A stretch of DNA of 64,000 bases from Blastocatellia bacterium (GCA_963732475.1 CAVSZR010000001.1:11631-75630), one strand, 5' to 3'; shown: positions 25,510 to 56,503, counted from the first letter of the stretch. Numbers and translations: made by a program. The notes: generated from the letters alone by a model not told the origin.

Positions 25510-25577
25510 GCCACAGAGTTCACAGAGAACTCAGAGGTTACCTGTCTCAACTCTGTGTTCTCTGTGTTTTCTGTGGC
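25510..25577. repeat. triple-unit hairpin (unit CACAGAG) filling the gap between DUF1844 and MBL genes
   Basis: The left arm is GCCACAGAGTTCACAGAGAACTCAGAG and the right arm is CTCTGTGTTCTCTGTGTTTTCTGTGGC. They form 23 Watson-Crick pairs plus 1 GU out of 27. The hairpin lies 3 nt after the stop and 8 nt before the next ATG. Confidence 0.85.
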
Positions 25578-25585
25578 CAAGTTGA

Positions 25586-26349
25586 ATGAAACTCACATTT
25601 CTCGGAACAGGCACATCTACAGGGGTTCCATCGATCGCATGCGATTGTGAAACGTGCCTTTCCGACGATCCTCGCGACAAACGTCTCAGGGTTTCCATCC
25701 TGATCGAACATAAAGACAAGAAGATCCTGGTCGATACGTCGATCGATTTTCGTCAACAAGCTCTTCGGGCAAATATCCGGCATCTCGATGCTGTACTGAT
25801 CACGCATTGCCACGTCGATCATGTCTTCGGACTCGACGACATCAGGCCGCTTAATTTTCGCTACGGGGCGATGGGCGTTTATGCGAACGATGTCGCGTGG
25901 ACAGATCTCAGGCGAATTTTTCAGTACATTTTTCAGCCGACACATTTCGGCGGCGGGCTGCCGCAGTTGATACCGCATACTGTCGTGCCGAACTCACCGT
26001 TCTGCATTGGCGAAGATCTAGAGATTACGCCGCTCGAAGTTACGCACGGCAAACTGCCCGTCATCGCCTACCGCTTTAACGATTTTGCGTACGCGACCGA
26101 TCTGAAAGTGATCCCGCCCGATTCAATGGACGGCCTCCGCGATCTTGACGTCTTGGTTTTGGATTGCGTCCGCATCAAACCGCACTCAACGCATCTGTGC
26201 CTGGAGGAAGCGTTGGCAATCATAGAAGATCTCAATCCAAAACGCGCTTTCTGACCCACCTGAATCACGATATTATGCACGGACGCGATTCGAAATTGTT
26301 GCCGGATAATGTCAAGTTTGGCCATGACGAATTAATAGTCGAGTCTTAG
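25586..26349 (+). CDS. MBL-fold metallo-hydrolase (PhnP-like; frame shift near 26245)
   Basis: FLGTGTSTGVP and ITHCHVDH carry the HxHxDH motif. The C-terminus FLTHLNHDIMHG continues in ORF 26164..26349. Confidence 0.7.
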
Positions 26350-26358
26350 AGGACGGTT

Positions 26359-26877
26359 ATGAATACTCTGCGGTTCTATCTGAAGCTCTTGCCTATTGTA
26401 GGCATCTTATTAGGCTACTCATGCTCACAAAAAGCGAACACTTTTCTTGCGGATGATGGATCTGTCGCCTCTAACGGGATTACACAAGCTCGCGATATGC
26501 CACAGTACGATGATGCAGGAAATTTTTATTCAAGATGGCACGGTCCAAATACCGAAAACGAGGAAAATACGGTGCGAGATTTCATTTGGACCCATTGGAC
26601 AGAAAAAAGACGCGGTTACATTAAAATGACCTCTGTTGGTGCCGATACACGCGAAACAACCCATTTCTTTATTGAACCGGACGAAAACGGCGGATTTCAA
26701 ATTGCACGGAGAAATTTACACTTTCATTACGATCCTAAATATAACAACGTAAGAACTACAGATGACATCGTTACGGTTGAACGTAACGACTCGACGAAAG
26801 AAGACCCCGATTGGCAAATCGTTTTCAAATCCAAAGATGGCAGTGTTCTAAACTCTGTGCCGGCACCAGCGAAGTAA
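26359..26877 (+). CDS. hypothetical lipoprotein
   Basis: The signal peptide has a lipobox-like LLGYSC. I recognise no family. Confidence 0.5.
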   Translation: MNTLRFYLKLLPIVGILLGYSCSQKANTFLADDGSVASNGITQARDMPQYDDAGNFYSRWHGPNTENEENTVRDFIWTHWTEKRRGYIKMTSVGADTRETTHFFIEPDENGGFQIARRNLHFHYDPKYNNVRTTDDIVTVERNDSTKEDPDWQIVFKSKDGSVLNSVPAPAK

Positions 26878-26899
26878 AATCAAGAACTGTCTTATCTAT

Positions 26900-27358
26900 G
26901 TGATCTTAGCCTTCCGCCAGGCGACAATTGCCGATCTCCGCGAAATCGTCCGCATGCTCACCGACGATTTTCTCGGCCAGCAACGCGAGCGTTACGAAGA
27001 TCCGCTGCCAGAGAGTTACATCAAAGCCTTTCGCGAGATCGAGGCTGATCCGAATAATGAATTGATCGTTGCTGAGCTTGATGGCGATGTAGTAGGCACG
27101 ATGCAACTGACCTTCACACCGTCGATCAGTTTTCAGGGCGGCCGGCGGTGCACGGTCGAGTCGGTTCGGGTTGATGAAAAGTATCGAGGTAAGGGAATCG
27201 GACGCGAGATGATGCTTTGGGCGATCGATCGGGCAAAAGAGAAAGGGTGTGTCTCGATGCAGCTTACGACCAATAGCGATCGGACGGATGCTCACCGATT
27301 TTATGCGAATTTGGGATTTTCGGCTTCGCATATCGGGATGAAATTGAAGCTTAAGTAA
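26900..27358 (+). CDS. GNAT family N-acetyltransferase
   Basis: RVDEKYRGKGIGREMMLWAIDRAKEKG is the acetyl-CoA binding motif (Q/RxxGxG/A). Confidence 0.8.
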   Translation: MILAFRQATIADLREIVRMLTDDFLGQQRERYEDPLPESYIKAFREIEADPNNELIVAELDGDVVGTMQLTFTPSISFQGGRRCTVESVRVDEKYRGKGIGREMMLWAIDRAKEKGCVSMQLTTNSDRTDAHRFYANLGFSASHIGMKLKLK

Positions 27359-27360
27359 GC

Positions 27361-27428
27361 GTAGAACAGGCTGCCTAAGGCTGTTCATTCGCCCGGGCGG
27401 GATCGACAGACCTGGCCGTCTGTCGTAC
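27361..27428. repeat. bipartite REP-like element, copy 1 (GTAGAACAG...CTGTCGTAC)
   Basis: Two hairpins: GAACAG/CTGTTC (27364..27386) and CGACAGAC/GTCTGTCG (27404..27425). The same termini and two-hairpin layout occur at 63069..63147. It starts 3 nt after the GNAT stop. Confidence 0.75.
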
Positions 27429-27541
27429 CTAAATTATTGTGTTTCAAAGCGTTACCGCAATGTTACACGATTATTCAACCAAAACCTTACAACTTGCGCG
27501 TTAAATGCTGCAAATACACGTTTTAGCAATTAGTTTAAAAA

Positions 27542-27587
27542 CCACTACATTTAGTGTTGACAAAGGTAAATGACTACCATATAGTCT
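27542..27587 (+). promoter_or_regulatory. two NrdR-box-like palindromes overlapping the nrdA promoter
   Basis: Box 1 (27542..27557, ccACTACATTTAGTGT) matches the consensus acaCtAtATaTaGtgt at 13 of 16 positions. Box 2 is ACTACCATATAGT (27573..27585), with an odd central spacing. The centre-to-centre distance is about 28-29 nt, shorter than the usual ~31. Confidence 0.3.
27557..27585 (+). promoter_or_regulatory. sigma70-type promoter candidate for nrdA
   Basis: TTGACA (27557..27562), a 17-nt spacer, then TATAGT (27580..27585). Confidence 0.4.
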
Positions 27588-27812
27588 ATATCCACGACGG
27601 GAACGCTCAGAAGATTTTGTTAGTTTGAAAGAGATTTGCGGCACGTTTTGCCGCAACTGCCCCGCTAGCGGTAATGGGGAACGAAGACTGCCAATTGAAC
27701 CGTGATCTCATCTTCCATATTGGGAAACGGCAGCCGGTAGGAAAGGCCTTAACAGGCGCAAATTAATCCAAATCAATCCAGGGGGTGCGAAGTGGACGCC
27801 GCTTTAGAGAAA

Positions 27813-27858
27813 GGCCGGTGATGAGACTATTTGTCTCATGAAATAACCGGCACTTTTT
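27813..27858 (+). terminator. terminator-like hairpin inside the nrdA leader (possible attenuator)
   Basis: GGCCGGTG-ATGAGAC-tattt-GTCTCAT-gaaataa-CCGGC is followed by ACTTTTTC, about 55 nt upstream of the nrdA ATG. Confidence 0.3.
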
Positions 27859-27913
27859 CGACGACGCTTCTTCGCCAAAATCAGAAATTTTTCCACGAGG
27901 CTATCTAGTAGAA

Positions 27914-30327
27914 ATGGACACATACATCGGTCAATCCGCCGCCGCAGCAAGGCAATTAGAAGAACCGGCACAGACAACGATGCGCGTTGCCAAGCGCAAC
28001 GGCTCGCTTGAACCGGTCGATATCAATAAGATCGTCCGGGCCATCTCTCGCTGCTGTGTAAATCTGCCGAGCGTGGACGCGATGCGGATCGCGACCAAGA
28101 CGATCAGCGGCCTTTATGACGGCGCGACGACCAAAGAGCTTGACAAGCTTTCGATACAGACGGCAGCGAGCCTGATCTTCGAAGAGCCGGAATATTCGCG
28201 GCTCGGGGCTCGGCTCCTGAACCAGTATGTTGAAAAAGAGGTCCGCAATCAGGAAATTCATTCGTTCTCACAGTCGATCGCGTTTGGCGTAAAGGAAGGC
28301 CTTATCGCCCAACGTGTAGTCAACTTCGTTTCGGAAAACAGCCGCAAGCTGAATGACGCAATAGACCAGACCCGCAACGATCTATTCGAATTTTTCGGTC
28401 TCCGCACCTTGTACGATCGATATCTATTAAAAAATCCCGTAACGCGCGACGTTATCGAGACCCCGCAGTTTTTCTGGATGCGCGTCGCTTGCGGCCTTTC
28501 CGAAACGCCGAACGAAGCTATCGAACTTTACCGTCTCTTTTCATCGCTCGAATACGTGCCGAGTACGCCGACGCTCTTTAACTCGGGTACCAAACACGAG
28601 CAGCTCTCGTCTTGCTTCCTGCTCGATTCACCGCAGGACAGCCTGGAGAGCATTTACAAGAAATACTCCGACGTCGCTATGCTGTCGAAATTTTCGGGCG
28701 GCATCGGCATTGCATACAGCCGCGTGCGTTCGCAGGGTTCGCTGATCCGCGGAACGAACGGCCATTCGAACGGCATCGTGCCTTGGCTCAAAACGCTCGA
28801 TTCGTCGGTTTCGGCGGTAAATCAGGGCGGCAAGCGTAAAGGTGCCTGCTGCGTTTATCTTGAAACGTGGCACTCGGACATCGAAGATTTCCTTGAGCTT
28901 CGCGACAATACCGGCGACGAGGCCCGCCGCACGCACAACCTCAATACTGCGAATTGGATACCCGACCTCTTTATGAAACGGGTCCAGGCCGACGAGATGT
29001 GGTCGCTGTTCGACCCGAAGGTCGTGCCGCATTTTCCGGATGTTTACGGGGAGGAATTTGAAAAGGCTTACGTCGAAGCCGAAGAAGCCGGACTGTTCAC
29101 TCGGCAGTTAAAAGCCCGCGACCTGTACGCAAAAATGATGCGGACGATGGCCCAGACCGGCAATGGCTGGATGACGTTTAAGGACGCCGCAAACCGCAAA
29201 TCGAACCAGACGGCAAAACCCGGGAATGTCGATACATCTTTCGAATCTCTGCACCGAGATACTTGAGGTCACGTCCGAGAACGAAACCGCGGTTTGCAAT
29301 CTCGGTTCGATAAATCTTTCGACGCTACGTGAACAGCGACGGTTTTGATTTTGATAAATTGCGGTCGAATGTACGGCTGGCCGTTACGCAGCTTGACCGC
29401 GTGATCGATCTTAATTATTACGCGATCGAGAGCACGGCGGATTCGAACAATCGTTGGCGCAACATCGGCCTCGGGCTGATGGGCCTGCAGGATGTGTTTT
29501 TCGGGCTGCGGCTGCCGTTCGATTCCGAAGCCGCAAGAACGCTCTCGGCAAAGATACAGGAAGAGATCTATTTTGCCGCCCTCGACGCCTCGTGCGAGCT
29601 GGCGATCAAACGCGGCAAGCACCCGGCCTTTGAAGAAACGCGTGCGGCACAGGGCGTTTTCCAGTTCGACCTGTGGGGGATCGTGCCCGAAGACACGGAA
29701 CGCTGGGACGCACTGCGTGAAAAAGTCAAACAGCACGGCCTTCGCAATAGCCTGATGATCGCCATTGCGCCGACTGCGACGATCGCCTCGATCGCCGGCT
29801 GCTACGAGTGCATCGAGCCGCAGGTATCCAACCTTTTCAAACGCGAAACGCTGTCGGGCGATTTTGTTCAGGTCAACAAATATCTTGTCAAAGAATTGAA
29901 AGCGGCCGGGCTGTGGACGGACGAGATCCGCAACAAGATCAAACTTTCGGAAGGTTCGATCCAGGACATCGAAGAATTTCCCGAAGAACTGAAAGCGATC
30001 TACCGGACGGCATGGGAGGTGCCGATGCGTTCGCTGATCGACATGATGGCGATCCGCGGTGCCTTCATCGACCAGAGCGCTTCGCTAAACCTGTTCATGG
30101 AAAGCCCGAATATCGGCAAGCTTTCGTCGATGTACATGTACGCGTGGGAAAAGGGTTTGAAGACAACCTATTACCTTCGCTCGCGGCCGGCGACGAAGAT
30201 CGCGCAGGTGACGGCGGACTATAAGGTGTCGGAGCTCGTGCCCGAAGTGGCGGAAAAGGTTTACACGGACGAAGAAGCTTTGGTTTGCTCGCTGGAAAAT
30301 CCCGAGGCTTGCGAGGCGTGTCAGTAG
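27914..30327 (+). CDS. nrdA: ribonucleoside-diphosphate reductase alpha subunit (two frame shifts near 29225 and 29325)
   Basis: [54 protein letters not shown], then [25 protein letters not shown] in a third frame, then ORF 29329..30327 ([13 protein letters not shown]...TTYYLRS). An alternative start is at 27980. Confidence 0.9.
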
Positions 30328-30329
30328 CG

Positions 30330-30746
30330 AATTTCGAATAACGAATATCGAATGATGAATGAAGGAGTTTGATCTAAAGTCGCGAACAAAGAGTTTTGCA
30401 TTGAGGATAATCAAACTTTTTACGTCGCTACCAAAAACGGCAGAGGCGCAGGTCATCGGAAAACAGATATTGCGAAGCGGGACTAGTGTCGGTGCTCAGT
30501 ACCGAGAGGCTTGTCGAGCCCGCTCAAACTCGGAATTCATCAGCAAAATGGCAAGTAGTCTTCAGGAACTGGATGAAACGTCTTATTGGCTCGAGCTCTT
30601 AGTAGACGCAAATTTCATAAAAGCCGAAAAGCTAAAAAGCCTTCAGGATGAAGCAGATCAATTGATAGCTATTTTTGTCTCGTCGATCAAGACCGCTAAG
30701 GCAAAGAAATAACGAATTCATCATTCGATATTCGATATTCGAAATT
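30330..30746. repeat. 31-nt inverted repeat (30 of 31 complementary) enclosing the four-helix-bundle ORF; IVS-like stem-plus-cargo module
   Basis: The left arm is 30330..30360 (aatttcgaataacgaatatcgaatgatgaat). The right arm is 30716..30746 (attcatcattcgatattcgatattcgaaatt). The nrdA stop ends at 30327 and the nrdB ATG is at 30748. Confidence 0.85.
30359..30712 (+). CDS. four-helix-bundle protein (23S rRNA intervening-sequence protein family, TIGR02436-like)
   Basis: FDLKSRTKSFALRIIKLFTSLPKT..VIGKQILRSGTSVGAQYREACRARSNSEFISKMASSLQELDETSYWLELL follows the family pattern, including the E..YWL helix. Confidence 0.85.
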   Translation: MKEFDLKSRTKSFALRIIKLFTSLPKTAEAQVIGKQILRSGTSVGAQYREACRARSNSEFISKMASSLQELDETSYWLELLVDANFIKAEKLKSLQDEADQLIAIFVSSIKTAKAKK

Positions 30747-30747
30747 T

Positions 30748-31745
30748 ATGTTACTCGACCCAGGATTCAACCTCACCCTTCGCCCGATGAAGTACCCGGA
30801 TTTTTATGAAATGTATAAAAATGCGATCAAGAATACGTGGACCGTCGAAGAGGTCGATTTTTCGACCGACGTGACCGATCTGCGAAACAAGATGTCCGGC
30901 CCGAGCGGCATATGATCAACCGGCTGGTCGCGTTTTTTGCGACCGGCGATTCGATCGTTTCGAACAATCTCGTACTAAATCTCTACAAGCACATCAATTC
31001 GCCCGAAGCCCGGATGTACCTGTCGCGTCAGCTTTACGAAGAGGCGGTGCATGTGCAGTTTTACTTGACGCTGCTCGACACGTATATTCCCGACCATCAC
31101 GAACGCGAACAGGCGTTTGCGGCGATCGAGAATATTCCGTCGATCCGCAAAAAGGGCGAGTTTTGCATGAAGTGGATCGACACTATTTCCGATCTGGATT
31201 CGCTAACGACGAAGGAAGAACGGAAGCAGTTTTTGCTGAACCTTATCTGTTTCGCGACTTGCATCGAAGGGCTGTTCTTCTTCGCGGCTTTCGCGTACGT
31301 CTATTTTCTGCGTTCGAAGGGTCTGCTGCACGGCCTGGCGGCCGGTACGAACTGGGTCTTTCGCGACGAGTCGGCGCATATGAACTTTGCATTGGAGGTC
31401 GTTAATCAAGTCCGCAACGAAGAGCCGGAGCTGTTCGATCACGACCTGACTCGGCAGATCGTCGAAATGCTTGACGAGGCGGTCGAATGCGAAATGCAGT
31501 TTGCCGAGGACATCCTGAGCGGCGGCGTCGCCGGGCTGTCGGTCGCCGACATGCGGCAGTATCTCGAATTCGTCGCCGACCAACGCCTCGCCATGCTCGG
31601 GCTGCAAAAGGTTTACGGAGCAAAAAATCCGTTCTCGTTCATGGATCTGCAGGACGTCCAGGAACTGGCCAACTTCTTCGAACGCCGCGTCTCGGCCTAT
31701 CAGGTCGCGGTCGCGGGAGAGGTGAGCTTTAACGAGGCATTCTAG
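30748..31745 (+). CDS. nrdB: ribonucleoside-diphosphate reductase beta subunit (frame shift near 30900)
   Basis: MLLDPGFNLTLRPMKYPDFYEMYKNAIKNTWTVEEVDF (55 codons, unlisted) continues as ERHMINRLVAFFATGDSIV. The metal site is YEEAVHVQFY, with Tyr at the radical position. The second site is FRDESAHMNF. Confidence 0.9.
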
Positions 31746-31770
31746 AGGAATTACCGATCAGAAGAACAAG

Positions 31771-31797
31771 GGGCGGCCATGGTGCCGCTCTTTTATT
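31771..31797 (+). terminator. rho-independent terminator candidate after nrdB
   Basis: The stem is GGGCGGC/GCCGCTC with loop catggt, followed by TTTTATT, 26 nt after the nrdB stop. Confidence 0.45.
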
Positions 31798-31865
31798 GGC
31801 TTCATGTGTCATTCCTTCCATCTGACACAAAGGTGACCAAGTTTGAGCATCGGGCTTTAACGAAG

Positions 31866-33938
31866 TCAGATCGACAGTCCGACGTTGCCTTCCAGAACCT
31901 GTACATCGAGGTGCGGCCGCTCGCCCGGTTTCCACAGCTTGGCGACATGGGCGACGCGGTAGCGTATCGGGCCGCCGTCCGGCTCGGGCTTCGGGTGATG
32001 GGCCGCGGGATGCAGACGAACTCGGTTCGCATCTCATTGGCCGTGAGACTGCACCTTCGCGTAGCCGTGGCCGCCTAGGTCGACGAACTCGAGGTGCGGC
32101 GCGAGCTGCGGGTTCGAGAGGCCGAGTGCTCGCTTGAGGTCGAAGCTTTTCGCATATTCGAGGCAAGAGCGGACGCCGTGGCGCAGCAGCATGTTGTAGG
32201 TCCAATCCGGCTTGCCGCCGTCCGGGTCGGTCGGCCAGGAAGAGGGCCCGCAGCGGATGATCTTTGCGGAGGCCATGCTCTAAGGCTTCCATTCGCACCC
32301 GGGCTTGTCAATGACCCTCCGACGAAGCTCAATCCGACGGGCTCAAATTTCCGCGGCGGAAGATGTGCGGCGGCGTATCCGGCCCAGAAGGCGTGGCGGT
32401 CGCCGGACACGATCGCAAAGCCCGTGATCTTCGCATCGCGCACGAGGTCGTAGATCTCCTTCCGCTCGGCATAGGCCGCGCCGAAATCGTCGGTCCTGCC
32501 TATCCCGTAAGTGTCGGCCGGCCACGGATTCTTCACCATTCCGGCGGGAAGGTTTTGCATATCCACGCGGTTGTCGAGAGCGCCGAGCGAATTTCCCCAG
32601 ATCTTCCACGTCGCCTTCGACTTGCGCAGCTGAGTCCTTGAACCACGCCTTCTGCTCGACGCCGAGGATGGTCCGCGGCTGCTTGTCTTTGCTCGGGTTC
32701 GGAATGCGCACATCGCGGAATTGAAGTTCGGCAGGCGGCTTCCCGCCGTCGAAGGCGCGTCCCGCGTCGAGCGCGATCATCGCTTCCTCCGAAAAGTAGC
32801 CGCGGAACGACGGGTCGTAGATCTTTCCGACCTCCTCCGCGTCGCTCGGGTCTTCGCCGGCGAAGCTGCGCTGGTCGGTGATGATGAGGTCGAGGTGCTT
32901 GCCGTATCGGAACGCGCGGTAAGCGATCAGGCTGCGGATCGCGGCGAGGTTGTTCGGCTCTTGACCCAGCCCGTTCTCGTCCCACTTGTCGATCTTGACG
33001 TTCTTGACCGCAACCTTCCCGAATTCGGCGAGCGAGCCGCTCGGCGGCGTGACGCGAGCCGGAATGTATTCGAACCAGGCCTGATTGGCGGCGACCTTGA
33101 CGGTCTGGCCGGGCTGCGGCGGACCGCCCTGCTGGAGAATGCTTTGTCGGCCCTGCCACGAGAATTCGTGATTGTCCCACATGCAGACGAACGGCCAGCG
33201 GGCGCGGGCATCCTGCAGGTCGGGATCGGCGAGATAGCCTTTCCATACGGCGCGGTAGCCGTCAACGGTTTTCGGCCAGTAGAGGTTGCCGGTCTTTCCC
33301 GCGTCGGGGATGCGGCAGACCTCGTAGATCGTCCGGTCATAGCGGGTGGCTCCTTCTTCCGGATATTGAACGACCTCGTAGATGAAGTCGCCAAGGTGCA
33401 GCACAAAGCCAAGCTGATCCGCGGCCTGAGCGCGTTCGTCTTCGAAGATCATCCGGCGATAACCGTTGAGCTTTCCTTCGTTGACGCTCTGGCAGCTGAC
33501 GAATGCAAAATTGACGTCGCGGTCATCTTTGTCCGTTGGCGCTGTCATCGTACGGCCCACGCGGCTGCCAAACCCAAGGTCATCCGTGAATCGGTACCAG
33601 TAGACGGTACGCGGCTTAAGGCCGGCAACCAGAACGCGGCATGTCCAGTCAGCATCCGCTGAGATGGATGTCACGTTCTTTCCAACGACGCGTCGAAAGG
33701 CAGAGTCCTCAGCGATCTCAACCGTCAGTTTAGCCGCTGCCTTATCTACAGGCGGCCGCCGCGTCCACAAAATGATACTGTCGGGTGCAGGATCTCCCGA
33801 GGCTACGCCCTGCGGGAAAAGGTCGCGCCGCTCTTGCCAGCCAACCGACGAGGCTTGTGCTCGGCTCGTCGCCCACATCAACACAGCACCGAAGGATGCC
33901 GCCTGTTTTACAAATTCTCTCCGACTGATATTCTTCAT
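31866..33938 (-). CDS. phoD: PhoD-family alkaline phosphatase with Tat signal (at least 4 frame shifts; may be a pseudogene)
   Basis: The Tat signal is SRREFVKQAASFGAVLMWATSRAQA. PhoD-like motifs include FVSCQS, HLGDFIYE, WDNHEF and, in ORF 32075..32713, IVSGDRHAFWAG. The C-terminus continues in two further frames down to LEGNVGLSI-stop at 31866. Confidence 0.75.
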
Positions 33939-34029
33939 ATCTTCTCCTGCCGTATGTCACGGGTTTGCTATTTTGTGTTATTAATACGGCTGCTTGCGGA
34001 GAGAAGTTTTTATTATGGTTAACGTTAAG

Positions 34030-34183
34030 ACGGTCGTCGCAAAAAAATCTACGACGCACAGAACCCTTTCGCGTACTGGATCTGCTTGAGGACGTGCAGG
34101 AACTGGCCAACTTCTTCGAACGCCGCGTCTCGGCCTACCAAGTTGCTGTCGCGGGTGATGTGTCATTTAACGAGGCATTTTAA
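34030..34183 (+). pseudogene. orphan duplicate of the nrdB 3' end (last ~50 codons)
   Basis: ...QKNLRRTEPFRVLDLLEDVQELANFFERRVSAYQVAVAGDVSFNEAF-stop compares with the nrdB end ...QKVYGAKNPFSFMDLQDVQELANFFERRVSAYQVAVAGEVSFNEAF-stop. 34097..34137 is identical to 31659..31699 (41 nt). Confidence 0.8.
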
Positions 34184-34192
34184 GAGTTTTAG

Positions 34193-34262
34193 CTCGCGAA
34201 TTACGCAAATAACCGCGAATGAGATAATCTTTTCTTATTCGCTCTTTTCGCGTAATCGCGGG
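34193..34262. repeat. triple-unit hairpin (unit CGCGAAT)
   Basis: The left arm CTCGCGAATTACGCAAATAACCGCGAATGAG pairs, with bulges, to the right arm CTTATTCGCTCTTTTCGCGTAATCGCGGG. It lies between the relic nrdB stop and the next gene. Confidence 0.7.
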
Positions 34263-34278
34263 CAAAATTCTTATAGCA

Positions 34279-35256: not shown

Positions 35257-35274
35257 AAGCCGTTTAGGAAAATA

Positions 35275-35736: not shown

Positions 35737-35884
35737 AGGCACTTTGTCGCATAAGCTCAAGGGCGTGGAGGCGTTCGTCAATCGTAGCGTCGTGCCAATG
35801 CTGGCGGTCGGCCTCGTCGGCGTCTTCAAAACTGGTAAAGACCTGAATTGCCGTCCTGTCGAGTTTTACGTCATCGATATTCAC
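35672..35884 (-). CDS. small hypothetical protein upstream of the nucleotidyltransferase (antitoxin candidate)
   Basis: A 70-aa ORF (KLDRTAIQVFTSFEDADEADRQHW...ERLHALELMRQSAYGY). It overlaps the start of the nucleotidyltransferase gene by 65 nt in another frame. Confidence 0.4.
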   Translation of the reverse strand: MNIDDVKLDRTAIQVFTSFEDADEADRQHWHDATIDERLHALELMRQSAYGYNDPATRRLQRVLEIVRGE

Positions 35885-35950
35885 TATCTAATTATACCAT
35901 TTATCGCACAGTGTTTTTGCTAATATTAGATAGGTCTTTAAGGTAGTTTC

Positions 35951-42789: not shown

Positions 42790-42795
42790 AAAAAG

Positions 42796-43515: not shown

Positions 43516-43550
43516 AAGATGTTATCGCCCCCCTTTGAGTGGGCAGGCTC

Positions 43551-45037: not shown

Positions 45038-45149
45038 AAGAAATTTATCCGCAGATGAACACAGATTAACACGGTTATCGGAATTATTCTCCCTGTCTTT
45101 TGCTCGCTGGCCAATCTCCCTTTAATTCTCACGGTTCGTTTGATTAAAT

Positions 45150-45950: not shown

Positions 45951-45958
45951 TCGAATGT

Positions 45959-46219: not shown

Positions 46220-46349
46220 AAATTTTCTCAACCAATATTTTGACGTTAATGCCAGGAAATGAGGCCTGGCTGCAGCAATAGACCTATTCTACCTTAATTG
46301 CGGCACGAATTCTAAACTTTTAAGAACCCGGCCGCCACTGCTATCGGTT

Positions 46350-49316: not shown

Positions 49317-49593
49317 TCTGTACTCTAGAGCTAGTCGATTTCTATTCGAATTCCGCCATCAGTCCTGCACTGATATTCGTCCGTCTCGTCTTTCAGCTCC
49401 ATAACGGGAATGTCGATCGACTGAAGACTCTAACCTCCTGGAATCACTTCATCGAAGTGAGTGCATAATGGGTAATCGATCCTTCGCGAAGTGCCTTAGA
49501 CCTGACATAAACTGCGATAGTCTGCAATCGTCGCGCATCCGAAATACATCGTTGGCCTGTACCGCCTCAAACGTCGCAATACTTTCCACTTAG

Positions 49594-50577
49594 TCAGCAT
49601 CCATCGAAGCCGATCTTCTCCCTCACAGCATATATCGCCTTATCCTGCGACTCGTGATAAGTCCGGACCGACAATTCCGCAAGCAAGCCCATCAGGAAAA
49701 ACTGTACCGAGATCGCGAGCATCACTACGGTGATCACGGGCAGCGGCGTCAGGATGAATGATGTGCCGTAAAATTTCAGAACGATCGCCCAGATGCCGGA
49801 GATGAGCGACAGGAAGAACGCAATCATTCCGAAACTGCCGAAAACGTAGATCGGTTTGGTCTGGTACGACGCCATGAATTTTATGGTCATCAGATCGAAG
49901 ATGACCTTGATGGTACGCGAGATGCCGTATTTTGACTTGCCCATCGTGCGGGCGTGGTGGTCGACGGGGATCTCGGTGACGCGGGCACCGGCCCAGCTTG
50001 CGTAGATCGGGATAAAGCGGTGCATCTCGCCGTAGAGCTTTACGTCCTGGATGACATCGCGGCGATAGGCTTTGAGCGAACAGCCGTAATCGTGCAGTTT
50101 AACGCCGCCGATCCAGGAGATGACGCGGTTGGCAATTTGCGACGGTATCTTTCGCGATATGAGCTTGTCCTGCCGGTTCTTTCGCCAGCCTGAAACGACG
50201 TCGTAGCCTTCGTCGAGCTTGTCAAGCAGACGCTTGATATCCGCCGGGTCGTTCTGGAGATCGGCGTCCATCGGGATAAGGATCTCGCCCTTGGCAGCAT
50301 CGATGCCGGCGGACATTGCGGCCGTCTGTCCGTAGTTTCGTCGAAGCGAGATGACGCGGACGCGGTCGTCCTCGGCGGCGATCTCTTTCAATATCGACAG
50401 GCTATTGTCGGTCGAACCGTCATCAACAAAGATAACCTCCGCCGTCTTGCCCAAAGCGTCGAGAGCAGCCTTGATCTTGGCGTGCATTGGGCGAAGATTT
50501 TCTTCCTCATCCAGCACGGGCAGGAAAAGGGAAAGTTCCGGTGCGGCCAGCTTCTGTTTTGTTTCGGTCGAGTCCAT
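49594..50577 (-). CDS. family 2 glycosyltransferase (polyprenyl-phosphate glycosyltransferase-like)
   Basis: LSLFLPVLDEEENL, FVDDGSTDNS, DADLQNDP and two C-terminal TM helices resemble ArnC/GtrB/DPM1-like enzymes. Confidence 0.85.
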   Translation of the reverse strand: MDSTETKQKLAAPELSLFLPVLDEEENLRPMHAKIKAALDALGKTAEVIFVDDGSTDNSLSILKEIAAEDDRVRVISLRRNYGQTAAMSAGIDAAKGEILIPMDADLQNDPADIKRLLDKLDEGYDVVSGWRKNRQDKLISRKIPSQIANRVISWIGGVKLHDYGCSLKAYRRDVIQDVKLYGEMHRFIPIYASWAGARVTEIPVDHHARTMGKSKYGISRTIKVIFDLMTIKFMASYQTKPIYVFGSFGMIAFFLSLISGIWAIVLKFYGTSFILTPLPVITVVMLAISVQFFLMGLLAELSVRTYHESQDKAIYAVREKIGFDGC

Positions 50578-50671
50578 TTTTGGGTTACAGCTACAAACCT
50601 AATAATTTAGAACTTTCAGACCGGAAAATACAGCCGTCGCCAATTTTGGCTCCATCCGGGCCCATCCCACG

Positions 50672-50858
50672 TGTCCCATGTCCCAGGCTTCCACTCGCGT
50701 ATGACATTTGCCGGTTTCCAGGTAACTGTTCATACTGCATATCTTACGCCAATCCGTCTCAAATTCGGCTGTCCCACGGCGGGACACTTTTGGGACAGTC
50801 TTTTGGACACTTAAAGTATTGTGAACAAAACATTTGTGCGAAAGTGTCCCGGTGTCCC
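50672..50858. repeat. cluster of TGTCCC / GGGACA motifs in divergent intergenic region
   Basis: TGTCCCA is at 50672 and 50679 (tandem). CTGTCCCA is at 50769, GGGACAC at 50781, TGGGACAG at 50791 and TGGACAC at 50804. GTGTCCC is at 50844 and 50852. Confidence 0.6.
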
Positions 50859-50977
50859 GCACATTTTGCTTGTTTCATCGTTCTGACATCAAGTCATAAA
50901 TGAAACGCTAGGTATGGTAGATCAAATACCGCCGTCAGTCAAGAAAAATTGTTGTCGTCGTCCTGGATAGTGAATTA

Positions 50978-51036
50978 ACCACATAGAAACATAGAACACA
51001 TAGTAAAATACCCATGTGAACTAGTCCCTATGTGGT
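50978..51036. repeat. triple-unit hairpin (unit CACATAG)
   Basis: The left arm ACCACATAGAAACATAGAACACATAG and the right arm CCATGTGAACTAGTCCCTATGTGGT form about 20 pairs. The hairpin ends 10 nt before the ATG at 51047. Confidence 0.7.
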
Positions 51037-51046
51037 CAAGAATTTT

Positions 51047-52090
51047 ATGAACAGACGCAAATTTCTGCAGCTTCCGGTTCTCGGTGTTCCCGTTCTGCTC
51101 GCCGGTAATGTTATCGGGCAAACCCGCAGGACGAGTTCAGCACTTAAGGTCAAGATGCCCGCCGTTGTTTCGACCTGGGACAGCGGCATTACGGCCAACA
51201 ACGGCGCGTGGCCGATATTGCAGAAGGGCGGGCGGGCGTTGGACGCGGTGGAGGCGGCGGGGCGAGCGGCGGAGGACGAGCCGGGCTGCTGCGTGGGCTT
51301 GGCAGCGTGGCCGGACCGCGACGGGCGCGTGACGCTCGATTCGTGCATCATGGACGGTAACGGCGATATCGGTGCGGTGTCGTTTCTCGAACGCATCAAA
51401 CATCCCGTTTCCGTCGCCCGCAAGGTGATGGAGACTACGCCGCATGTGCTGCTGTCGGGCGAGGGGGCACAGGCGTTTGCGGTCGCGAACGGGTTCCCGC
51501 TGGAATCCGGCGAACTGTCGAACGACGCCAAAAAGGAATGGAAGGAGTGGCTTGAGAAGTCGAAATACAAGCCGGAGATCAATATCGAGAACAGGCGGCC
51601 CGGCGGTGCGGTCTCGCAATTTCCGCCATACTTTTTTTCGGACGGAACGCCAAACCACGACACGATGGGCACTGTCGCTATCGACGCAAAAGGAGGCCTT
51701 TCGGGGATGGTCACGACCAGCGGAATGGCGTTCAAAATGCGCGGCCGAGTGGGCGATTCGCCTATAATTGGGGCCGGGCTGTTTGTCGATAACGAGGTCG
51801 GAGCGGCCACATCGTCCGGCGTCGGCGAAGAGGTCATCCGTATCTGCGGAACGCACACCGTCATCGAACAAATGCGAGCGGGCCGCTCACCCGAACAAGC
51901 CTGCCGCGAAGCCATCCGCCGTGTCGTCAAACGCGACCCCGCGAAAGCAAAGGAAATGCAGGTCGGGTTTTTGGCATTGTCGCGAAGAGGCGAAATAGGG
52001 GCGTTTGCGATAGTGAAGGGATTTACTTTTTCGGTGACGAATTCGCAGTATCCGCAGGGAAAAGTGTTCGAGGCGAAGAGCTGGTTTTAG
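51047..52090 (+). CDS. N4-(beta-N-acetylglucosaminyl)-L-asparaginase / isoaspartyl peptidase family Ntn hydrolase
   Basis: The Tat-like signal is MNRRKFLQLPVLG. The autoprocessing site is HDTMGTVAID. GDSPIIGAGLFVD is also present. Confidence 0.8.
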   Translation: MNRRKFLQLPVLGVPVLLAGNVIGQTRRTSSALKVKMPAVVSTWDSGITANNGAWPILQKGGRALDAVEAAGRAAEDEPGCCVGLAAWPDRDGRVTLDSCIMDGNGDIGAVSFLERIKHPVSVARKVMETTPHVLLSGEGAQAFAVANGFPLESGELSNDAKKEWKEWLEKSKYKPEINIENRRPGGAVSQFPPYFFSDGTPNHDTMGTVAIDAKGGLSGMVTTSGMAFKMRGRVGDSPIIGAGLFVDNEVGAATSSGVGEEVIRICGTHTVIEQMRAGRSPEQACREAIRRVVKRDPAKAKEMQVGFLALSRRGEIGAFAIVKGFTFSVTNSQYPQGKVFEAKSWF

Positions 52091-52098
52091 GTAAGAGA

Positions 52099-52209
52099 AA
52101 CAGGATGGACAGGATAAACAGGATTCCTGTCTGCTTTCTAACAACTGGAGCGAACAAATAAACATCACGATCACCCTTATCTTATCCTGCCTATCCTGTT
52201 AATCCTGTT
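52099..52209. repeat. triple-unit hairpin (unit ACAGGAT) with a ~59-nt loop, between convergent genes
   Basis: The left arm is 52099..52124 (AACAGGATGGACAGGATAAACAGGAT). The right arm is 52184..52209 (ATCCTGCCTATCCTGTTAATCCTGTT). 22 of 26 positions are complementary. The right arm encodes the last codons and the stop of the cutC-HIT ORF. Confidence 0.8.
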
Positions 52210-53281
52210 TAATTCTTTTGCCCGAGTTGACATGAAAATGCAGATGTTTTGAATCCTGATACTCCCCAAGATTTGTCAGCACCCGGGCCGCTCTTTTTTC
52301 TTCTACTACCATAGCGGCGACCTGTTTTACTACGTCGAGCAGTTCGATAAGCAACGCATTGTCATCTATAGTCAGAAGCGAACTGACGTGTGTTTTCGGG
52401 ATGACGACGATGTGCGTCTCCCAGAACGGGCGGGTGTGGTGATATGCGAGGACGTTTGCGGTCTCGGCCACTTTTTCGACCGGCGTTTTGCCGCTTAGGA
52501 CTTCTTCGCAATAAAAATCTTCGATCATTCGATACCTTTTGCTGCGTTGATAATGCGTCCGCACGCTTTCGGCGGTCGCGACGCGGCGGGTGTATTCTGA
52601 CGGAGCATCGTCGGAGCCCATCGCGACACTCTCGTTCCGAAACTCCATCTTGCTTGATACATCTTCGAACGCTGTGAAGTGAAATTCATTCGCACCGGTC
52701 ACCGCAACGACCTGGGCCGCGTTGGCTTCATCAATGCTGCCGCAGGCGAGTATTCCGATGCGGCCCTCGGCTTGCCGGACCAGTTCCGCGATGAGCAGAG
52801 CTCCATCGACCGCGTTGGCCTGCTGCCCGGAGGTGAGGACGCGGGAAACGCCCAGTTCGATCAGCGTCTCCAACGCTGTACGCGGATCGCGGCAGACGTC
52901 GAATGCGCGGTGAAACGTGACCGACATCGGTTTTGCCAACGAGACGAGTTCGGCGGTGCGGGCCTCGTCGATCTCGCCGTCAGCCGTCAATAAACCAATA
53001 ACTACACCGTCGGCACCGAGCGATTTGGCGGTTTCGATATCGAGCTTCATCGTCTCAAACTCGATCTCAGAATAAAGAAAATCGCCGCCGCGGGGGCGGA
53101 TGATGACGTGAAGTTTGATATCGATAAGCCGGCGTGCGGTTTTGATCGAACCAAGGCTGGGCGTAGTGCCGCCTTCGAAAAGATTGTCGCAAAGTTCGAC
53201 CCGATCGGCCCCGCCATGTTGGGCGGCAAGGGCGGATTCGGGTGAATCAACGCAGATCTCGATTTGGATACGGTCTTCCAC
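52199..53281 (-). CDS. cutC: CutC-family protein fused in frame to a HIT-family domain
   Basis: Residues 1 to ~240 are CutC-like (IEICVDSPESALAAQHGGADRVELC...HRAFD). Residues ~255 to 360 are HIT-like (HIVVIPKTHV...HLHFHV). There is no stop between the two. Confidence 0.7.
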   Translation of the reverse strand: MEDRIQIEICVDSPESALAAQHGGADRVELCDNLFEGGTTPSLGSIKTARRLIDIKLHVIIRPRGGDFLYSEIEFETMKLDIETAKSLGADGVVIGLLTADGEIDEARTAELVSLAKPMSVTFHRAFDVCRDPRTALETLIELGVSRVLTSGQQANAVDGALLIAELVRQAEGRIGILACGSIDEANAAQVVAVTGANEFHFTAFEDVSSKMEFRNESVAMGSDDAPSEYTRRVATAESVRTHYQRSKRYRMIEDFYCEEVLSGKTPVEKVAETANVLAYHHTRPFWETHIVVIPKTHVSSLLTIDDNALLIELLDVVKQVAAMVVEEKRAARVLTNLGEYQDSKHLHFHVNSGKRIKQD

Positions 53282-53368
53282 TTAAAGTGATTCTAATGTC
53301 GGGGCGGTCAAAAAGAAAAGCCGCGTCCGAAAACGCGGCTCTCCAAAGGCTGTCGATCACGCCGATCA

Positions 53369-53713
53369 TTAGTATCTTCGATAGAAATACCCATTGCGGT
53401 AATTCCAAGTTGAGAACGGCCGATGGAATCTGCGGCCGTTTTGATACCAATACCATCCGTACCGGTCGCGGTTTACATTTTGAACGTATTCACGCCGAGC
53501 ATCCCGCAGATCTTCCTGATACTCTTTCACGGCCTTTCGCCGGTCGCCGTTCCGGATACGCCTGTTGTAGTCCTCTCGCGCGTCGCGCAGATCATCTCTA
53601 TACTCGCGTTCCGCGTGTTGGCGACTTTGAGCATTGGCCGTCCCCGCGTTTACCAGGACCAACCCAAATACCATTGCCAATGAAATAATTCCAAACTTCA
53701 GAATGTTTCTCAT
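53369..53713 (-). CDS. small secreted Arg/Tyr-rich protein
   Basis: It has a signal peptide (ISLAMVFGLVLVNAGTANA) and an internal repeat (EYRDDLRDAREDY / EYQEDLRDARREY). GGGAGA lies upstream of the ATG. Confidence 0.5.
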   Translation of the reverse strand: MRNILKFGIISLAMVFGLVLVNAGTANAQSRQHAEREYRDDLRDAREDYNRRIRNGDRRKAVKEYQEDLRDARREYVQNVNRDRYGWYWYQNGRRFHRPFSTWNYRNGYFYRRY

Positions 53714-53874
53714 AGTTTTATCTCCCTATTGATCTTTTTGCACGATCGTGTGCTTTTCATACACATGCTAGTTTTCGTGCACTATTGAGAACGCAAAGAT
53801 TATGCCATTCCGGCTAATTTTGGCGGGATGTTTGGCTGGATCGTGACCCGGAGTTCCAAGCGAAACTTAAGAAA

Positions 53875-54644
53875 TTAAAGCTTTTTGGCGACCAAAACGA
53901 TCGAAACTCCAAACGGGAAATCGAAGTTCTTAAGCCAGAACCGTTCGGCACCAAATAGTTTGCCGAAGACTCCATTTAGTGCAGAAATGTTCACATTGTT
54001 CTCGGATTCCGGTTTGATTCCGGTCACTTTCATTAGAGTGCGTCCGCCAAGAATAGGAGCGAAAAACGTCCAGTTTGCGTACGTTGCACGCTCGACGGTG
54101 TATCCGGCTTTTTCCAAGCGTTCGACGATCTGTTTTCGAGTGTAGCGGATACGGTGATTGGAAATGTCGTCCTGAACGCCCCACAGCCACATAAAAGCGG
54201 GGACGAAGATCAAGGAATAACCGCCCGGTTTCGTGACGCGGTGCATTTCCTTAAGGCCGGCGATATCGTCGTCGAGGTGTTCGATCACATCCAGTGCGGT
54301 TGTTATGTCGAATGAGTTCGTCAGCATAGGGAAGTTTCTCGGCAAGCCCTTTTTGGACTTTAAGCCCTTTTCGGCGGCAGAATTCGAGTGCGTCGTCCGA
54401 GACATCGACTCCTTCGGCCGTACCGAACTGGGCAAGCATTTCGAGATTTGCACCGGTGCCACAACCGACATCGAGGATCGAGAGGTTTTGAGTCCTTCGA
54501 GTCGAGGAGTCTCTGAGGCGAGATCATCCGCAAAAAGCTCTCAAGGATGGCGCGGCGGCCGACGAACCACCAATGCGATCCCTCGACCTCATCCATGATG
54601 CCGTATGTGTGCTGCTCCATTTCCTGGGGTAATGCCGTACTCAT
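53875..54644 (-). CDS. class I SAM-dependent methyltransferase (about 3 frame shifts)
   Basis: MSTALPQEMEQHTYGIMDEVEGSHWWFVGRR, then LDVGCGTGANLEMLAQFG in other frames, then DVIEHLDDD...KPGGYSLIFVPA in ORF 53875..54471. Confidence 0.7.
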
Positions 54645-54656
54645 TAGAAATAGTTT

Positions 54657-54728
54657 GCCACGAATTACACGAATTACACTAATAAGAACCAATGCGGAAA
54701 CATTCGTGTTATTTGTGCAATTCGTGGC
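54657..54728. repeat. triple-unit hairpin (unit CACGAAT)
   Basis: The left arm GCCACGAATTACACGAATTACAC and the right arm ...GTGTTATTTGTGCAATTCGTGGC form 20 Watson-Crick pairs plus 1 GU out of 23. The hairpin fills the gap between the stop at 54733 and the next start at 54644. Confidence 0.85.
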
Positions 54729-54732
54729 TGAT

Positions 54733-55416
54733 CTATTTTTGGCGAAGGCCCAGCAATTCGCTGGCGCACGGGCCCGGTTGCCGTCCGGCGTAAGGCCGTA
54801 GCTTTCGCATAGGCGGCGATGGATGCCGTCGTCGCTGACAAAACAGGGGCTGACGTCGTCGTTGCGGCCGAGGATCATCAGGCCGAGGCCTTCGTCTATG
54901 ATATTCGTCCTTGTTGATGCAAAGCATATAGTCGCCGGAGATCTTGTGTGCTTCAAGCTCGAGTTCGTAAAGCGTTGGATCGAAAAGACTTAGCGGATTT
55001 ACGTCCGCATTCGAAAAACTCTCGATGGTTCGGGCAAAATCGTACGCGTGGCGGCCTTCGTGGACGAAGGTGCCTTCGCAGCCGCGCTGGCCGCCCGTGT
55101 CGATCGTCTCTTCCGCGATGGCAATATAGACCTCGCCAAGAGCTTCCCTGAGGCCCAGACGCCCGTCGGCGATCCTTTCATTCGTCTCGTCCGGATCGAT
55201 CAGCCCGGTGATACCCGACGCATTTATTTCACTGACTGGCTTTACCTGAACGAGCATCTTCGACTTCACAATATGCGTCGCGATCTCCTTTTGCAGGCTG
55301 GTGCCGTGTGCGAGGATCGTGTCGAACGCATCCTCGACCGACTTCCTATATTTTTTTTCGATCCCCTTATCAAATTTCATTGCATTTGCCACCACCGATA
55401 AAATATATAGATTCAT
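54733..55416 (-). CDS. hypothetical protein with HExxH motif (frame shift near 54900; 3' end uncertain)
   Basis: TFVHEGRHAYDF contains H-E-G-R-H. After CINKDEY the sequence continues in another frame (IIDEGLGLMILGRNDDVSPCFVSDDGIHRRLCESYGL). Confidence 0.4.
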   Translation of the reverse strand: MNLYILSVVANAMKFDKGIEKKYRKSVEDAFDTILAHGTSLQKEIATHIVKSKMLVQVKPVSEINASGITGLIDPDETNERIADGRLGLREALGEVYIAIAEETIDTGGQRGCEGTFVHEGRHAYDFARTIESFSNADVNPLSLFDPTLYELELEAHKISGDYMLCINKDEYHRRRPRPDDPRPQRRRQPLFCQRRRHPSPPMRKLRPYAGRQPGPCASELLGLRQK

Positions 55417-55425
55417 CGTTGCCGT

Positions 55426-56421
55426 TCATCCGACATTTCCAAACCCGCACCAGCTATTGCTATTGTGCCAATGATCTCAACATCCTTGGCGTTGATCTCG
55501 TTCCACCAATCCTCAAACTCCTGTTTTGAAATGTAAAACGCGGTCGGGGCGACCAGATGATCAAAGACAATATTGTGCTGCTCTCGCCAGCCGAAGATGC
55601 CGAGATGGTTCAGGTAGTCGTTGTAAAACAGATGCTTTGCGGCCCCTTTTGCGGCAATATTGGCCGGGCGGTAGACGAGTTTAGTTGTCAGAAAAAGACT
55701 GAGCGTCGGAAGTTTTGAAAGCTGATAAAGCATCGGCTGGCTCATCTTTGACGTAAAGCTTTCGCGGATCGGGTTTACATATTTCGTGATCCATTCGTTG
55801 TTCTCGGCCCCGTATATCCAGGCCGAAATATGGCCGCCTTGTCGGACCTTCGAAACCAGCGAGAGAAACGCCTTTTTTGGATCCGGGGTGTGATGCAGGA
55901 CGCCAACGCTGAACGCATAGTCGAAAGCTTTCTTGAGCGGCAGTTTGAAGATGTCGCACTGAACAATGTGTGCGTTCGGCAGATCGCGGGTCAGACGCGA
56001 ACGCGGATTCTACGCCGTCGCCCAAATCGATGCCAACGACCTCTTTTGCTCCCCATTCGGCGGCGAGCTTTGTGTGCCGGCCCTTGCCGCAACCGCCTTC
56101 GAGAACGACTTTATCTTTAAAGAATTCGGGCTTTACCGGCTGCAGCCATCCAAGGAACTGGTCGTTGTATTTTGGGTCTTCCTGCGTGAAATTTGTCCAC
56201 TGCCAGCCGAAATTCTCAGCCGTCTCCGCCTTATCGGCCTCGATTTTCCCAAGATCGGCAAAACGCGGCACACCGCGGACGACCTTGTATTCGCGGTCGC
56301 ATTTTTTGCATGTCAGCACGCCCTCGATTATTTCTTTGTCGTCATATTTGCTCGCATAAGCGAGCAAAATATCGCCGCCGCAGGTCGGGCACGCAAGCAG
56401 ATCTAAAAGCCTTTCTTTCAT
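55426..56421 (-). CDS. SAM-dependent methyltransferase with N-terminal Trm112-like zinc ribbon (frame shifts near 55990 and 55470)
   Basis: LLACPTCGG...LTCKKCDREYKVVRGVPRF is the zinc ribbon. VLEGGCGKGRH is motif I. The protein continues in ORF 55413..55745. The family-like end WHNSNSWCGFG lies in a third frame and stops at 55426. Confidence 0.7.
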
Positions 56422-56431
56422 AAAGTCAATT

Positions 56432-56503
56432 AGCCACGAATGTCACGAATTTACACGAAATGAAGAGAGATCCACATTCGTGATATCCGTGTAAATTGCG
56501 GCT
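56432..56503. repeat. triple-unit hairpin (unit CACGAA)
   Basis: The left arm AGCCACGAATGTCACGAATTTACACGAAATG and the right arm CACATTCGTGATATCCGTGTAAATTGCGGCT form about 20 pairs with bulges. The right arm overlaps the upstream stop codon. The left arm ends 10 nt before the next start. Confidence 0.7.

Follow-up and report, generated by a model that had tools for sequence, protein, structure and literature searches.

Hairpin loci in the window

A 64,000-nt stretch of a Blastocatellia bacterium genome (GCA_963732475.1, CAVSZR010000001.1:11631-75630; hereafter the window) contains a series of hairpins whose arms are built of short tandem units. They lie in gaps between genes, and one of them, between the genes for the large (alpha) and small (beta) subunits of ribonucleotide reductase (RNR), carries an S23p open reading frame (ORF) in its loop. 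We consider it probable that all of these loci are palindromic intergenic cassettes of a single class, similar to the intervening sequences (IVSs) of 23S rRNA and acting as a looped-out RNase III substrate on the transcript. A sequence-only reading of the window had listed seven loci of one design. These and one further candidate are given in Table 1.

Table 1. Hairpins, cassette arms and cargo ORF of the window.
Feature	Position (nt)	Strand	Description
Short hairpin, ORF-less (25510)	25510-25577	+	Three 9-nt units, core CACAGAG; junction of DUF1844 and MBL-hydrolase genes
Cargo cassette, left arm	30330-30360	+	About 4.4 heptamers (CGAATNN); from 2 nt past the RNR-alpha stop to the cargo ATG
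Cargo ORF	30359-30712	+	117 aa, S23p / four-helix-bundle protein
Cargo cassette, right arm	30716-30746	+	NNATTCG heptamers; ends 1 nt short of the RNR-beta ATG at 30748
Short hairpin (34193)	34193-34262	+	Units CGCGAAT / CGCAAAT / CGCGAAT; z −6.7
Weak extra candidate (50780)	50780-50851	.	Units GGGACA, irregular period 11-13 nt; z −4.95
Short hairpin (50978)	50978-51036	+	Unit CACATAG; right arm decayed; z −5.1
Hairpin (52099)	52098-52210	.	Unit ACAGGAT; 59-nt loop; z −5.5
Short hairpin (54657)	54657-54728	−	Unit CACGAAT, period 9; z −6.0
Hairpin (56432)	56428-56507	−	Unit CACGAAT, period 9-10; z −4.1

All seven listed loci were confirmed as real, non-coding and far above chance. The RNA folds of the six short hairpins had z-scores from −4.1 to −8.9, and none of 200 dinucleotide shuffles folded as well at any of these loci. 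The cassette arms are 31 nt each, 97% complementary and 355 nt apart, and the whole cassette (30330-30746) measures 417 nt. An ungapped inverted-repeat scan of the window (at least 19 of 24 matches, loop of at most 450) returned five inverted repeats, four of which were listed loci, all four with periodic arms; in 40 dinucleotide shuffles the same scan returned a mean of 1.0 inverted repeat and never a periodic one. Tandem Repeats Finder reported period 9 at 25551, 52098, 54659 and 56435, period 8 at 50980 and period 7 at 30335 and 30723. A greedy ORF set covered 89% of the window, and the hairpins fell in the remaining 11% except for 25510, which is overlapped by an antisense ORF extension; this extension is spurious, and the genuine gene at that place is the DUF1844 ORF. 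Rfam returned zero families at gathering score over the whole window and no rRNA. Two possible solo arms, at 45048 and 21677, were rejected as members: they are only short tandem repeats, no partner arm was found for them, and they are unfolded (z +0.9 and +0.8).

Hairpin 25510 begins 3 nt past a TAA and stops 8 nt short of an ATG (fold −40.5 kcal/mol, z −8.9), and 34193 has the (duplicated) end of RNR-beta on one side and a deoxyhypusine-synthase-like gene on the other. Hairpin 50978 belongs to a divergent intergenic region of 470 nt and lies 10 nt upstream of the asparaginase start codon (ATG at 51047), and 52099 occupies the gap of a convergent pair, asparaginase (stop 52090) and a CutC-HIT gene (stop 52199). 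Two minus-strand genes are separated by 54657 (upstream stop at 54733, next ATG at 54643) and two others by 56432, whose right edge overlaps the stop at 56502-56504, with the next ATG at 56421. The arms had been described as spanning from a stop codon to the next start. This holds for 25510 and the cassette and fails for 52099, with its convergent neighbours, and for 50978, which follows no real stop; the flanking genes of 54657 and 56432 are on the minus strand. Units of 8-9 nt had likewise been given for all arms. The short hairpins have periods of 8-10 nt, but the cassette unit is 7 nt. Hairpins 54657 and 56432 are two copies of one CACGAAT family. The candidate at 50780, in a divergent intergenic region and with arms 71% complementary, is a possible, weak eighth member absent from the earlier list; the eight hairpins of the window fall into at least six unit types.

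The cassette between the RNR subunit genes

The cargo protein matched PF05635, the '23S rRNA intervening sequence protein' family (E 2.2e-22), TIGR02436, a four-helix-bundle protein (E 5.8e-29), and PDB 2RLD (E 1.5e-23). In the window the PF05635 ORF is found only in the cassette, and the short hairpins are without an ORF. Its closest relatives are in metagenome-assembled genomes (MAGs) of Pyrinomonadaceae (Acidobacteriota), and in 20 Pyrinomonadaceae genomes the cargo gene lies between the RNR large- and small-subunit genes. The distance from the RNR-alpha stop to the cargo ATG is exactly 31 nt in 12 of the 20 orthologues, and this space is filled by the left arm; in the 20 RNR cassettes 0-3 nt separate the end of the right arm from the RNR-beta ATG. 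Because the arms end at both codons, stop and start would stand opposite each other in the folded state. Unit insertions and deletions are coordinated between both arms among the RNR orthologues.

All 12 orthologues examined encode an unbroken cargo of 117 aa, with a nonsynonymous divergence (dN) of about 0.07, a synonymous divergence (dS) of about 2 and a dN/dS of about 0.04, where dS was unsaturated in only 7 of 66 pairs. As judged from these codon comparisons, the S23p cargo is shown to be under strong purifying selection.

The IVS of Coxiella burnetii is a 428-nt element in helix 45 of 23S rRNA, with an inverted-repeat stem and an S23p ORF in the loop; two to three tandem heptamers GACAGAT and a degenerate one stand directly before the S23p ATG, their copy number varies among strains, and the stem is cut by RNase III (PMC4990558). 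The 23S IVSs of Coxiella and Leptospira resemble the cassette in having an S23p/PF05635 gene in the loop of a long inverted-repeat stem and tandem heptamers right before the ORF ATG, and they are regarded as selfish and sporadically distributed (PMC4990558). The window cassette has every architectural feature of a Coxiella-type IVS except the rRNA location: 23S IVSs are inserted in helix 25 or 45, whereas the cassette lies between the protein-coding RNR-alpha and RNR-beta genes. It also differs in its ORF, which is intact and under purifying selection while that of Coxiella is decaying and probably untranslated, in having ORF-less miniature copies and in units of up to 8-10 nt.

States of the DUF1844-MBL junction

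The junction that holds hairpin 25510, between the DUF1844 gene and the metallo-beta-lactamase (MBL) hydrolase gene, was compared in 84 relatives (13 genomes and 71 metagenome contigs; MBL identity 79-92%). In some relatives the junction is empty, the stop codon touching or overlapping the start codon (e.g. L154, L167 and L012; ATAGTG, TGAATG). Short hairpins of about ten unit types occupy the same place in other relatives: CACAGAG, CGCAGAG and CACATAG, which are variants one nucleotide apart in one layout, and GTCTAGGAA, GAGTTCGTT, GTTGCAGAA, GGTAAAT, GTGAAAA, GAGTCGA and GAGAGTAGA. Full cassettes of 457-586 nt were also found, in which a second PF05635 gene lies inside arms of 9-nt period, either of type GAAGTCTAG or of type GAGTTGACT/CGAGTT. 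The clade of the cargo follows the arm type: proteins of the EGQGRR type occur with GAAGTCTAG arms, those of the EGHGRR type with GAGTT arms.

Arms of the GTCTAGGAA type enclose the gene in L106, L109, L135 and L168 and lack it in L090, L103, L111, L159, L018 and L021. Decayed states include frameshifted or truncated genes in L106 and L168 and a 212-nt ORF-less intermediate in L126. A scar state was found in L121, with a gap of 21 nt as compared with a 78-nt hairpin in L133 (flanks 96% identical). The 21-nt remnant in L121 and L129, whose flanks are 95-96% identical to those of L133, keeps the palindrome base only (ACCGCGTT) and looks like a centre deletion of the hairpin. Taken together, the alignments of this orthologous site show what appear to be gain, loss, centre deletion and replacement of cassettes.

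Other observations were made at the same junction. The first unit of GTCTAG-type elements (L111, L103, L126, L135, L168) takes the place of the stop codon with which the upstream gene originally ended and brings an in-frame TAG (...AAA GTC TAG); therefore the C-terminus of the upstream protein is slightly rewritten. Unrelated inserts in L119, L157, L112 and L145 include a two-gene module looking PIN-like by eye, an ORF of 172 aa that looks secreted and one of 313 aa on the minus strand. Since such inserts occupy the same junction in these relatives, the site is a general insertion hotspot. Six relatives (L098, L118, L124, L026, L033, L102) have GC-rich, non-periodic long palindromes in this gap, e.g. 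GGGAACGCAGGCGCCCTCGCCTGCAACG..., with fold energies down to −87 kcal/mol.

Dispersal of the arms and generality of the cassette

Near-identical arms were found at unrelated loci. Hairpins of L142 and L146, which lie at the DUF1844-MBL junction, a non-equivalent locus, match the left arm of 50978 at all but 2 of 26 positions. The arm of 52099 recurs twice in L037, in near-perfect stems of about 38 bp, and once in L075, a Chloroflexota contig. Given these arms, and given that gene-bearing and gene-less states share arms at the DUF1844-MBL junction, the short hairpins are best seen as ORF-less members of dispersed cassette families. The comparison shows cassette and mini-hairpin forms with common arms and their dispersal between loci.

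The layout had been described as constant while the unit differs, in contrast to ordinary repetitive extragenic palindromic (REP) elements, which share sequence. The first part stands across the loci of the window. The contrast with REP is only apparent, because each unit type forms a sequence family once other genomes are compared; as far as these alignments go, sequence is shared as in REP families and in those of MITEs (miniature inverted-repeat transposable elements), but in many low-copy families with a common architecture.

For 77 cargo homologues of 63-84% identity, from Acidobacteriota, Chloroflexota, Verrucomicrobiota, Planctomycetota and Desulfobacterota, flanking inverted repeats with a score of at least 12 were found in 65, as compared with none of 249 shifted controls. 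The arm heptamers included GAATGAT, GAATGCA, GAAGGAT, GAGGGAT, GAATTAT and CGAATAT. The cassettes occupy at least 36 gene contexts, mostly junctions of partner genes: RNR alpha/beta (18), carA/carB (13), argB-like/argD-like (6) and metY-like/metA-like (6). Where they could be named, the neighbours of the cargo were housekeeping genes of these kinds. The sequences thus compared show cassettes placed exactly at the stop-to-start junctions of genes that are apparently co-transcribed.

Periodic-arm hairpins without cargo numbered 147 in 1.2 Mb of related loci. In a 243-kb subset 49 were found and in its shuffles none, so that here, as in the window, they exceed shuffled sequence. Their period is mostly 7, at times 8-9, and the unit varies by locus inside one genome. 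No cargo cassette with CACAGAG, CACGAAT or ACAGGAT arms was found in the 1.4 Mb of loci searched.

Some related loci showed further arrangements. In L050 (1582-2193) a 195-aa ORF of PDDEXK_3, a GxxExxY-type nuclease fold, lies inside mirror arms of period 8 (GGATAAGC units); the architecture thus holds a second type of cargo. In the Anaerolineales loci L036, L046, L047, L050, L053 and L057 the cassette is at the carA/carB junction, and an extra heptamer array stands some 600 nt upstream of the cargo, just ahead of the part of carA that encodes the glutamine amidotransferase; a heptamer-array element may therefore divide carA in these bacteria.

The same hairpins could be non-mobile simple-sequence repeats like the cyanobacterial short tandemly repeated repetitive (STRR) sequences. 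They would grow from seed hairpins by slippage in place and template switching within the palindrome and serve as mRNA stabilisers or translational-coupling devices, with S23p genes inserting or persisting in their loops. We regard this as unlikely, although several observations speak for it. At 34193 the window and L011 have a hairpin of three units, and L012, L021 and L026 only a one-unit inner hairpin with a T-run; unit indels are coordinated between arms in the RNR orthologues; and the CACAGAG, CGCAGAG and CACATAG variants share one layout at one junction. Heptamer slippage has been proposed as a source of repeats (PMC4692102, PMC4679880), and 7-bp STRR hairpins between hupS and hupL have been proposed to act in stability or coupling (PMC2670836). 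Growth in place does not sit easily with near-identical whole arms, the order of unit variants included, that recur at non-homologous loci and across phyla. Unrelated unit types and cassettes also alternate at one junction in close relatives, and cargo and arms move together into the at least 36 gene contexts given above.

Conservation and covariation of the arms

Covariation was assessed with the 22 alignable hairpins at the DUF1844-MBL junction and 500 shuffles. Paired cells made up 82.6% as compared with 73.9% in shuffles, cells changed on both sides numbered 61 as compared with 26, and the covariation score was 0.286 as compared with 0.148; none of the 500 shuffles reached the observed value in any of the three measures. 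Slid controls gave covariation scores of 0.04-0.10. For these 22 sequences of one orthologous site, the arms do covary. Substitutions in the core hit the three units of both arms together (CAC to CGC, GAG to TAG); the 2 nt that separate one unit from the next drift, and many of them are unpaired.

Of the 32 stem pairs of the RNR cassette, 13 were invariant; these correspond to the GAAT/ATTC cores, GAAT being fixed in 12 genomes. The three spacer positions of each heptamer vary and are paired only about half the time. The unit cores of the RNR cassette are actively maintained, since they are invariant while synonymous sites of the adjacent gene are saturated. These comparisons show that cores and arm complementarity have been kept over long evolutionary distances.

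Such a pattern could also arise if the unit cores were recognition sites for a multimeric nucleic-acid-binding protein, the candidate being pentameric S23p with cognate paralogues, and the pairing of the arms were secondary. We rate this protein-binding array as a tentative possibility, short of likely; it is compatible with the looped-out cassette and does not exclude it. The cores are kept or changed in concert over all units of both arms (CAC to CGC; GAAT in 12 genomes) while spacers drift, the cargo clades track the arm types (EGQGRR with GAAGTCTAG, EGHGRR with GAGTT), and the cargo is under strong purifying selection. S23p is described as a homopentameric ring in PMC4990558, which cites Lin 2006 for it, and PDB 2RLD has five chains. 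The authors who described heptamers in Nostoc and Beggiatoaceae also postulated a binding factor (Beggiatoaceae: PMC4679880). Yet no binding activity is known for stand-alone S23p, and the many hairpin types per genome would require many cognate proteins. The correlation of clade and arm type is equally expected under plain co-inheritance. A match of pentamer to five units was considered and rejected: the RNR arms have five GAAT cores, but over 78 cassettes the commonest arm length was four units in register.

Proposed mode of action

In the looped-out cassette that we favour, each arm consists of 3-5 short tandem units mirrored in the opposite arm, each unit having a conserved core of 4-7 nt and a freer spacer of 2-3 nt. 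The full form carries an S23p/PF05635 four-helix-bundle gene in its loop, and the short hairpins are its ORF-less versions. On the polycistronic transcript the arms would pair into an interrupted duplex of 27-35 bp, which would place the upstream stop opposite the downstream start. By analogy with IVSs, RNase III probably cuts this duplex. The insertion would be topologically looped out and could be tolerated within essential operons. In the empty state the genes overlap, and therefore a looped-out insertion would preserve their coupling; a GGAGG-like Shine-Dalgarno sequence was read in the last 15 nt of none of the five co-directional junctions of the window. The number of units would shift by slippage, and the arms may be held in step by selection or by template switching within the palindrome.

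Several points weigh against this reading. Among stem mismatches G·U was not more frequent than A·C (35:52 over the stems of 64 cargo cassettes; 19:21 over 29 short hairpins), and therefore selection on a sense-RNA fold is not demonstrated. Spacer positions within the stems are frequently unpaired, and a palindrome process at the DNA level could be the source of the complementarity. No transposase, reverse transcriptase or target-site duplication was identified, the transposase being looked for in the flanks, and no hairpin-binding recombinase was found in a search that was not genome-wide. The flanks are AT-rich and partly palindromic (TTAA-like), which makes a target duplication indistinguishable from an extension of the arms. 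The unit spacers are not direct repeats. Hairpin 34193 looks, from its relatives, as if it had grown in place from a one-unit terminator hairpin, and therefore part of the diversity at the junction could have evolved in situ, without repeated insertion. Cargo may have been lost from cassettes or, conversely, inserted into hairpins.

Nested self-insertion, with each unit a layer and each spacer a target duplication, was rejected as a source of the arms: direct-identical spacers were at chance (7/36 and 10/38), and the spacers are weakly complementary, if anything.

Selection on an RNA or DNA structure had been proposed for the hairpins, with processing, stabiliser or terminator signals and recombinase targets as examples. 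The general proposal is borne out in so far as cores and complementarity are kept; the mismatch counts give no sign of selection on the sense RNA. The data compared here show maintenance of cores and complementarity, with which a sense RNA, a DNA palindrome or a factor reading the cores are all compatible.

The terminator signal suits only the inner part of 34193, where the inner stem (34215-34242) followed by TCTTTTCG was called terminator-like. We consider it very improbable that the hairpins in general are ordinary Rho-independent terminators or attenuators between genes, although T-runs follow several orthologous hairpins and 52099 is flanked by convergent genes. Hairpins 25510, 54657 and 56432 and the cassette arms were not called terminator-like, and terminator-like calls in these regions showed no excess over shuffles (16 vs 12.7 and 11 vs 8.9). 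The stems are 27-35 bp, AT-rich and interrupted, a U-tract is mostly absent, and operon-like junctions such as RNR alpha/beta are places where termination would harm. Among the alternatives it is the only one clearly disfavoured.

A wider form of the cassette model is a doubtful speculation. S23p proteins would be sequence-specific binders of the unit cores and form, with the mirror arms, a class of mobile cassettes that lack a transposase. ORF-less periodic hairpins, including cyanobacterial STRRs, Xanthomonas heptamer pairs and 23S rRNA IVSs, would be non-autonomous copies, and they would be targeted to stop/start junctions, at which the stem formed in RNA would loop the element out.

Relation to known repeat elements

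Cyanobacterial STRRs are tandem units of 7 nt that form hairpins at hupS-hupL and hoxW, for which a role in stability or coupling has been proposed (PMC2670836); Mazel 1990 stands in the reference list. Like the elements described here, STRRs are intergenic hairpins between co-transcribed genes with many unit sequences. They differ in being direct arrays of heterocystous cyanobacteria, and a link with S23p or a mirror-arm rule is absent from the accessible literature. The period of 7 in the cassette matches STRRs, whereas the short hairpins have 8-10 and the host is an acidobacterium, not a cyanobacterium. In a Thermoflexales locus (L076, 6517-6602) we found a hairpin with arms of the unit TTGGTCA, which we take to be the cyanobacterial STRR2 heptamer.

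REP sequences, REPINs and the Correia MITEs of Neisseria are short palindromic repeats that are dispersed between genes and co-transcribed with them, and Correia hairpins are RNase III substrates. REP and MITE families have a single conserved sequence in many copies, a REP-associated tyrosine transposase (RAYT) or insertion sequence (IS) transposase and defined target duplications. The elements of the window form instead many low-copy families that share architecture only, and neither a transposase nor a clear target duplication was seen. With at least six unit types in the window they are not the single, many-copy palindrome of a REP/REPIN-RAYT system, for which no genome-wide RAYT search was made. 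Dispersed copies, as in MITEs, were found for 50978 (L142/L146), 52099 (twice in L037, once in L075) and 54657 (56432).

In Xanthomonas, inverted GGGAATC arrays form 70-75 convergent pairs per genome that stay between the same genes while their length and sequence shift (PMC4692102). TAACTGA arrays of Beggiatoaceae, Cyanobacteria and Bacteroidetes stand near start codons and have a patchy cross-phylum spread that is unexplained (PMC4679880), and heptamer arrays of Nostoc also adjoin start codons. Both the Xanthomonas and the TAACTGA arrays resemble the present elements in being intergenic heptamers often near starts. G-quadruplexes or sites for regulators were the interpretations given, without mention of a cargo gene, and the TAACTGA arrays are nearly all direct repeats, unlike the mirror arms here.

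Avd of diversity-generating retroelements (DGRs; PF22296, bAvd-like, related to PF05635) is a homologous small four-helix-bundle protein. The second cargo type had a weak bAvd match (E 1.9e-4), below the curated cut-off. Unlike DGRs, the cassettes adjoin no reverse transcriptase and no template or variable repeat. Neither cargo type had a meaningful match in the PADLOC defence-system library.

We found no literature linking PF05635/S23p to inverted heptamer repeats outside rRNA, or describing ORF-less mirror-arm hairpins; subscription journals were mostly outside the search and a prior description is possible. The cassette ties three puzzles to one architecture: the ORF-bearing 23S IVSs with their S23p, the abundance and patchiness of heptamer arrays (Cyanobacteria, Xanthomonas, Beggiatoaceae, Bacteroidetes) and the role of the 'four helix bundle protein' family. 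In at least five phyla it is also present between the cistrons of essential operons, and it has gene-less derivatives. Annotation currently ignores these structured elements, which make hypervariable spots in conserved operons. Testable handles are whether RNase III cleaves the stems, whether S23p binds the unit cores and whether translation is coupled across the stem.

Other features of the window

Conserved genes are frameshifted at 27914-31745, 53875-54643, 55681-56421 and 56502-57075. RNR-alpha is split at 29266/29329, and RNR-beta, which starts at 30748, is continued in the reading frame of 30837. Frameshifts also affect two methyltransferases and one small gene on the minus strand. These frameshifts are likely errors of a long-read MAG, the alternative being pseudogenisation.

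An insert at 31746-34095, right behind RNR-beta, has 61% GC and a frameshifted minus-strand ORF of 531 aa. Behind it, the last approximately 90 nt of RNR-beta occur a second time (31650-31745 resembles 34095-34183). The RNR-beta 3' end is duplicated in three related genomes too (L015, L019, L085), and the comparison suggests that it is a recurrent integration site.

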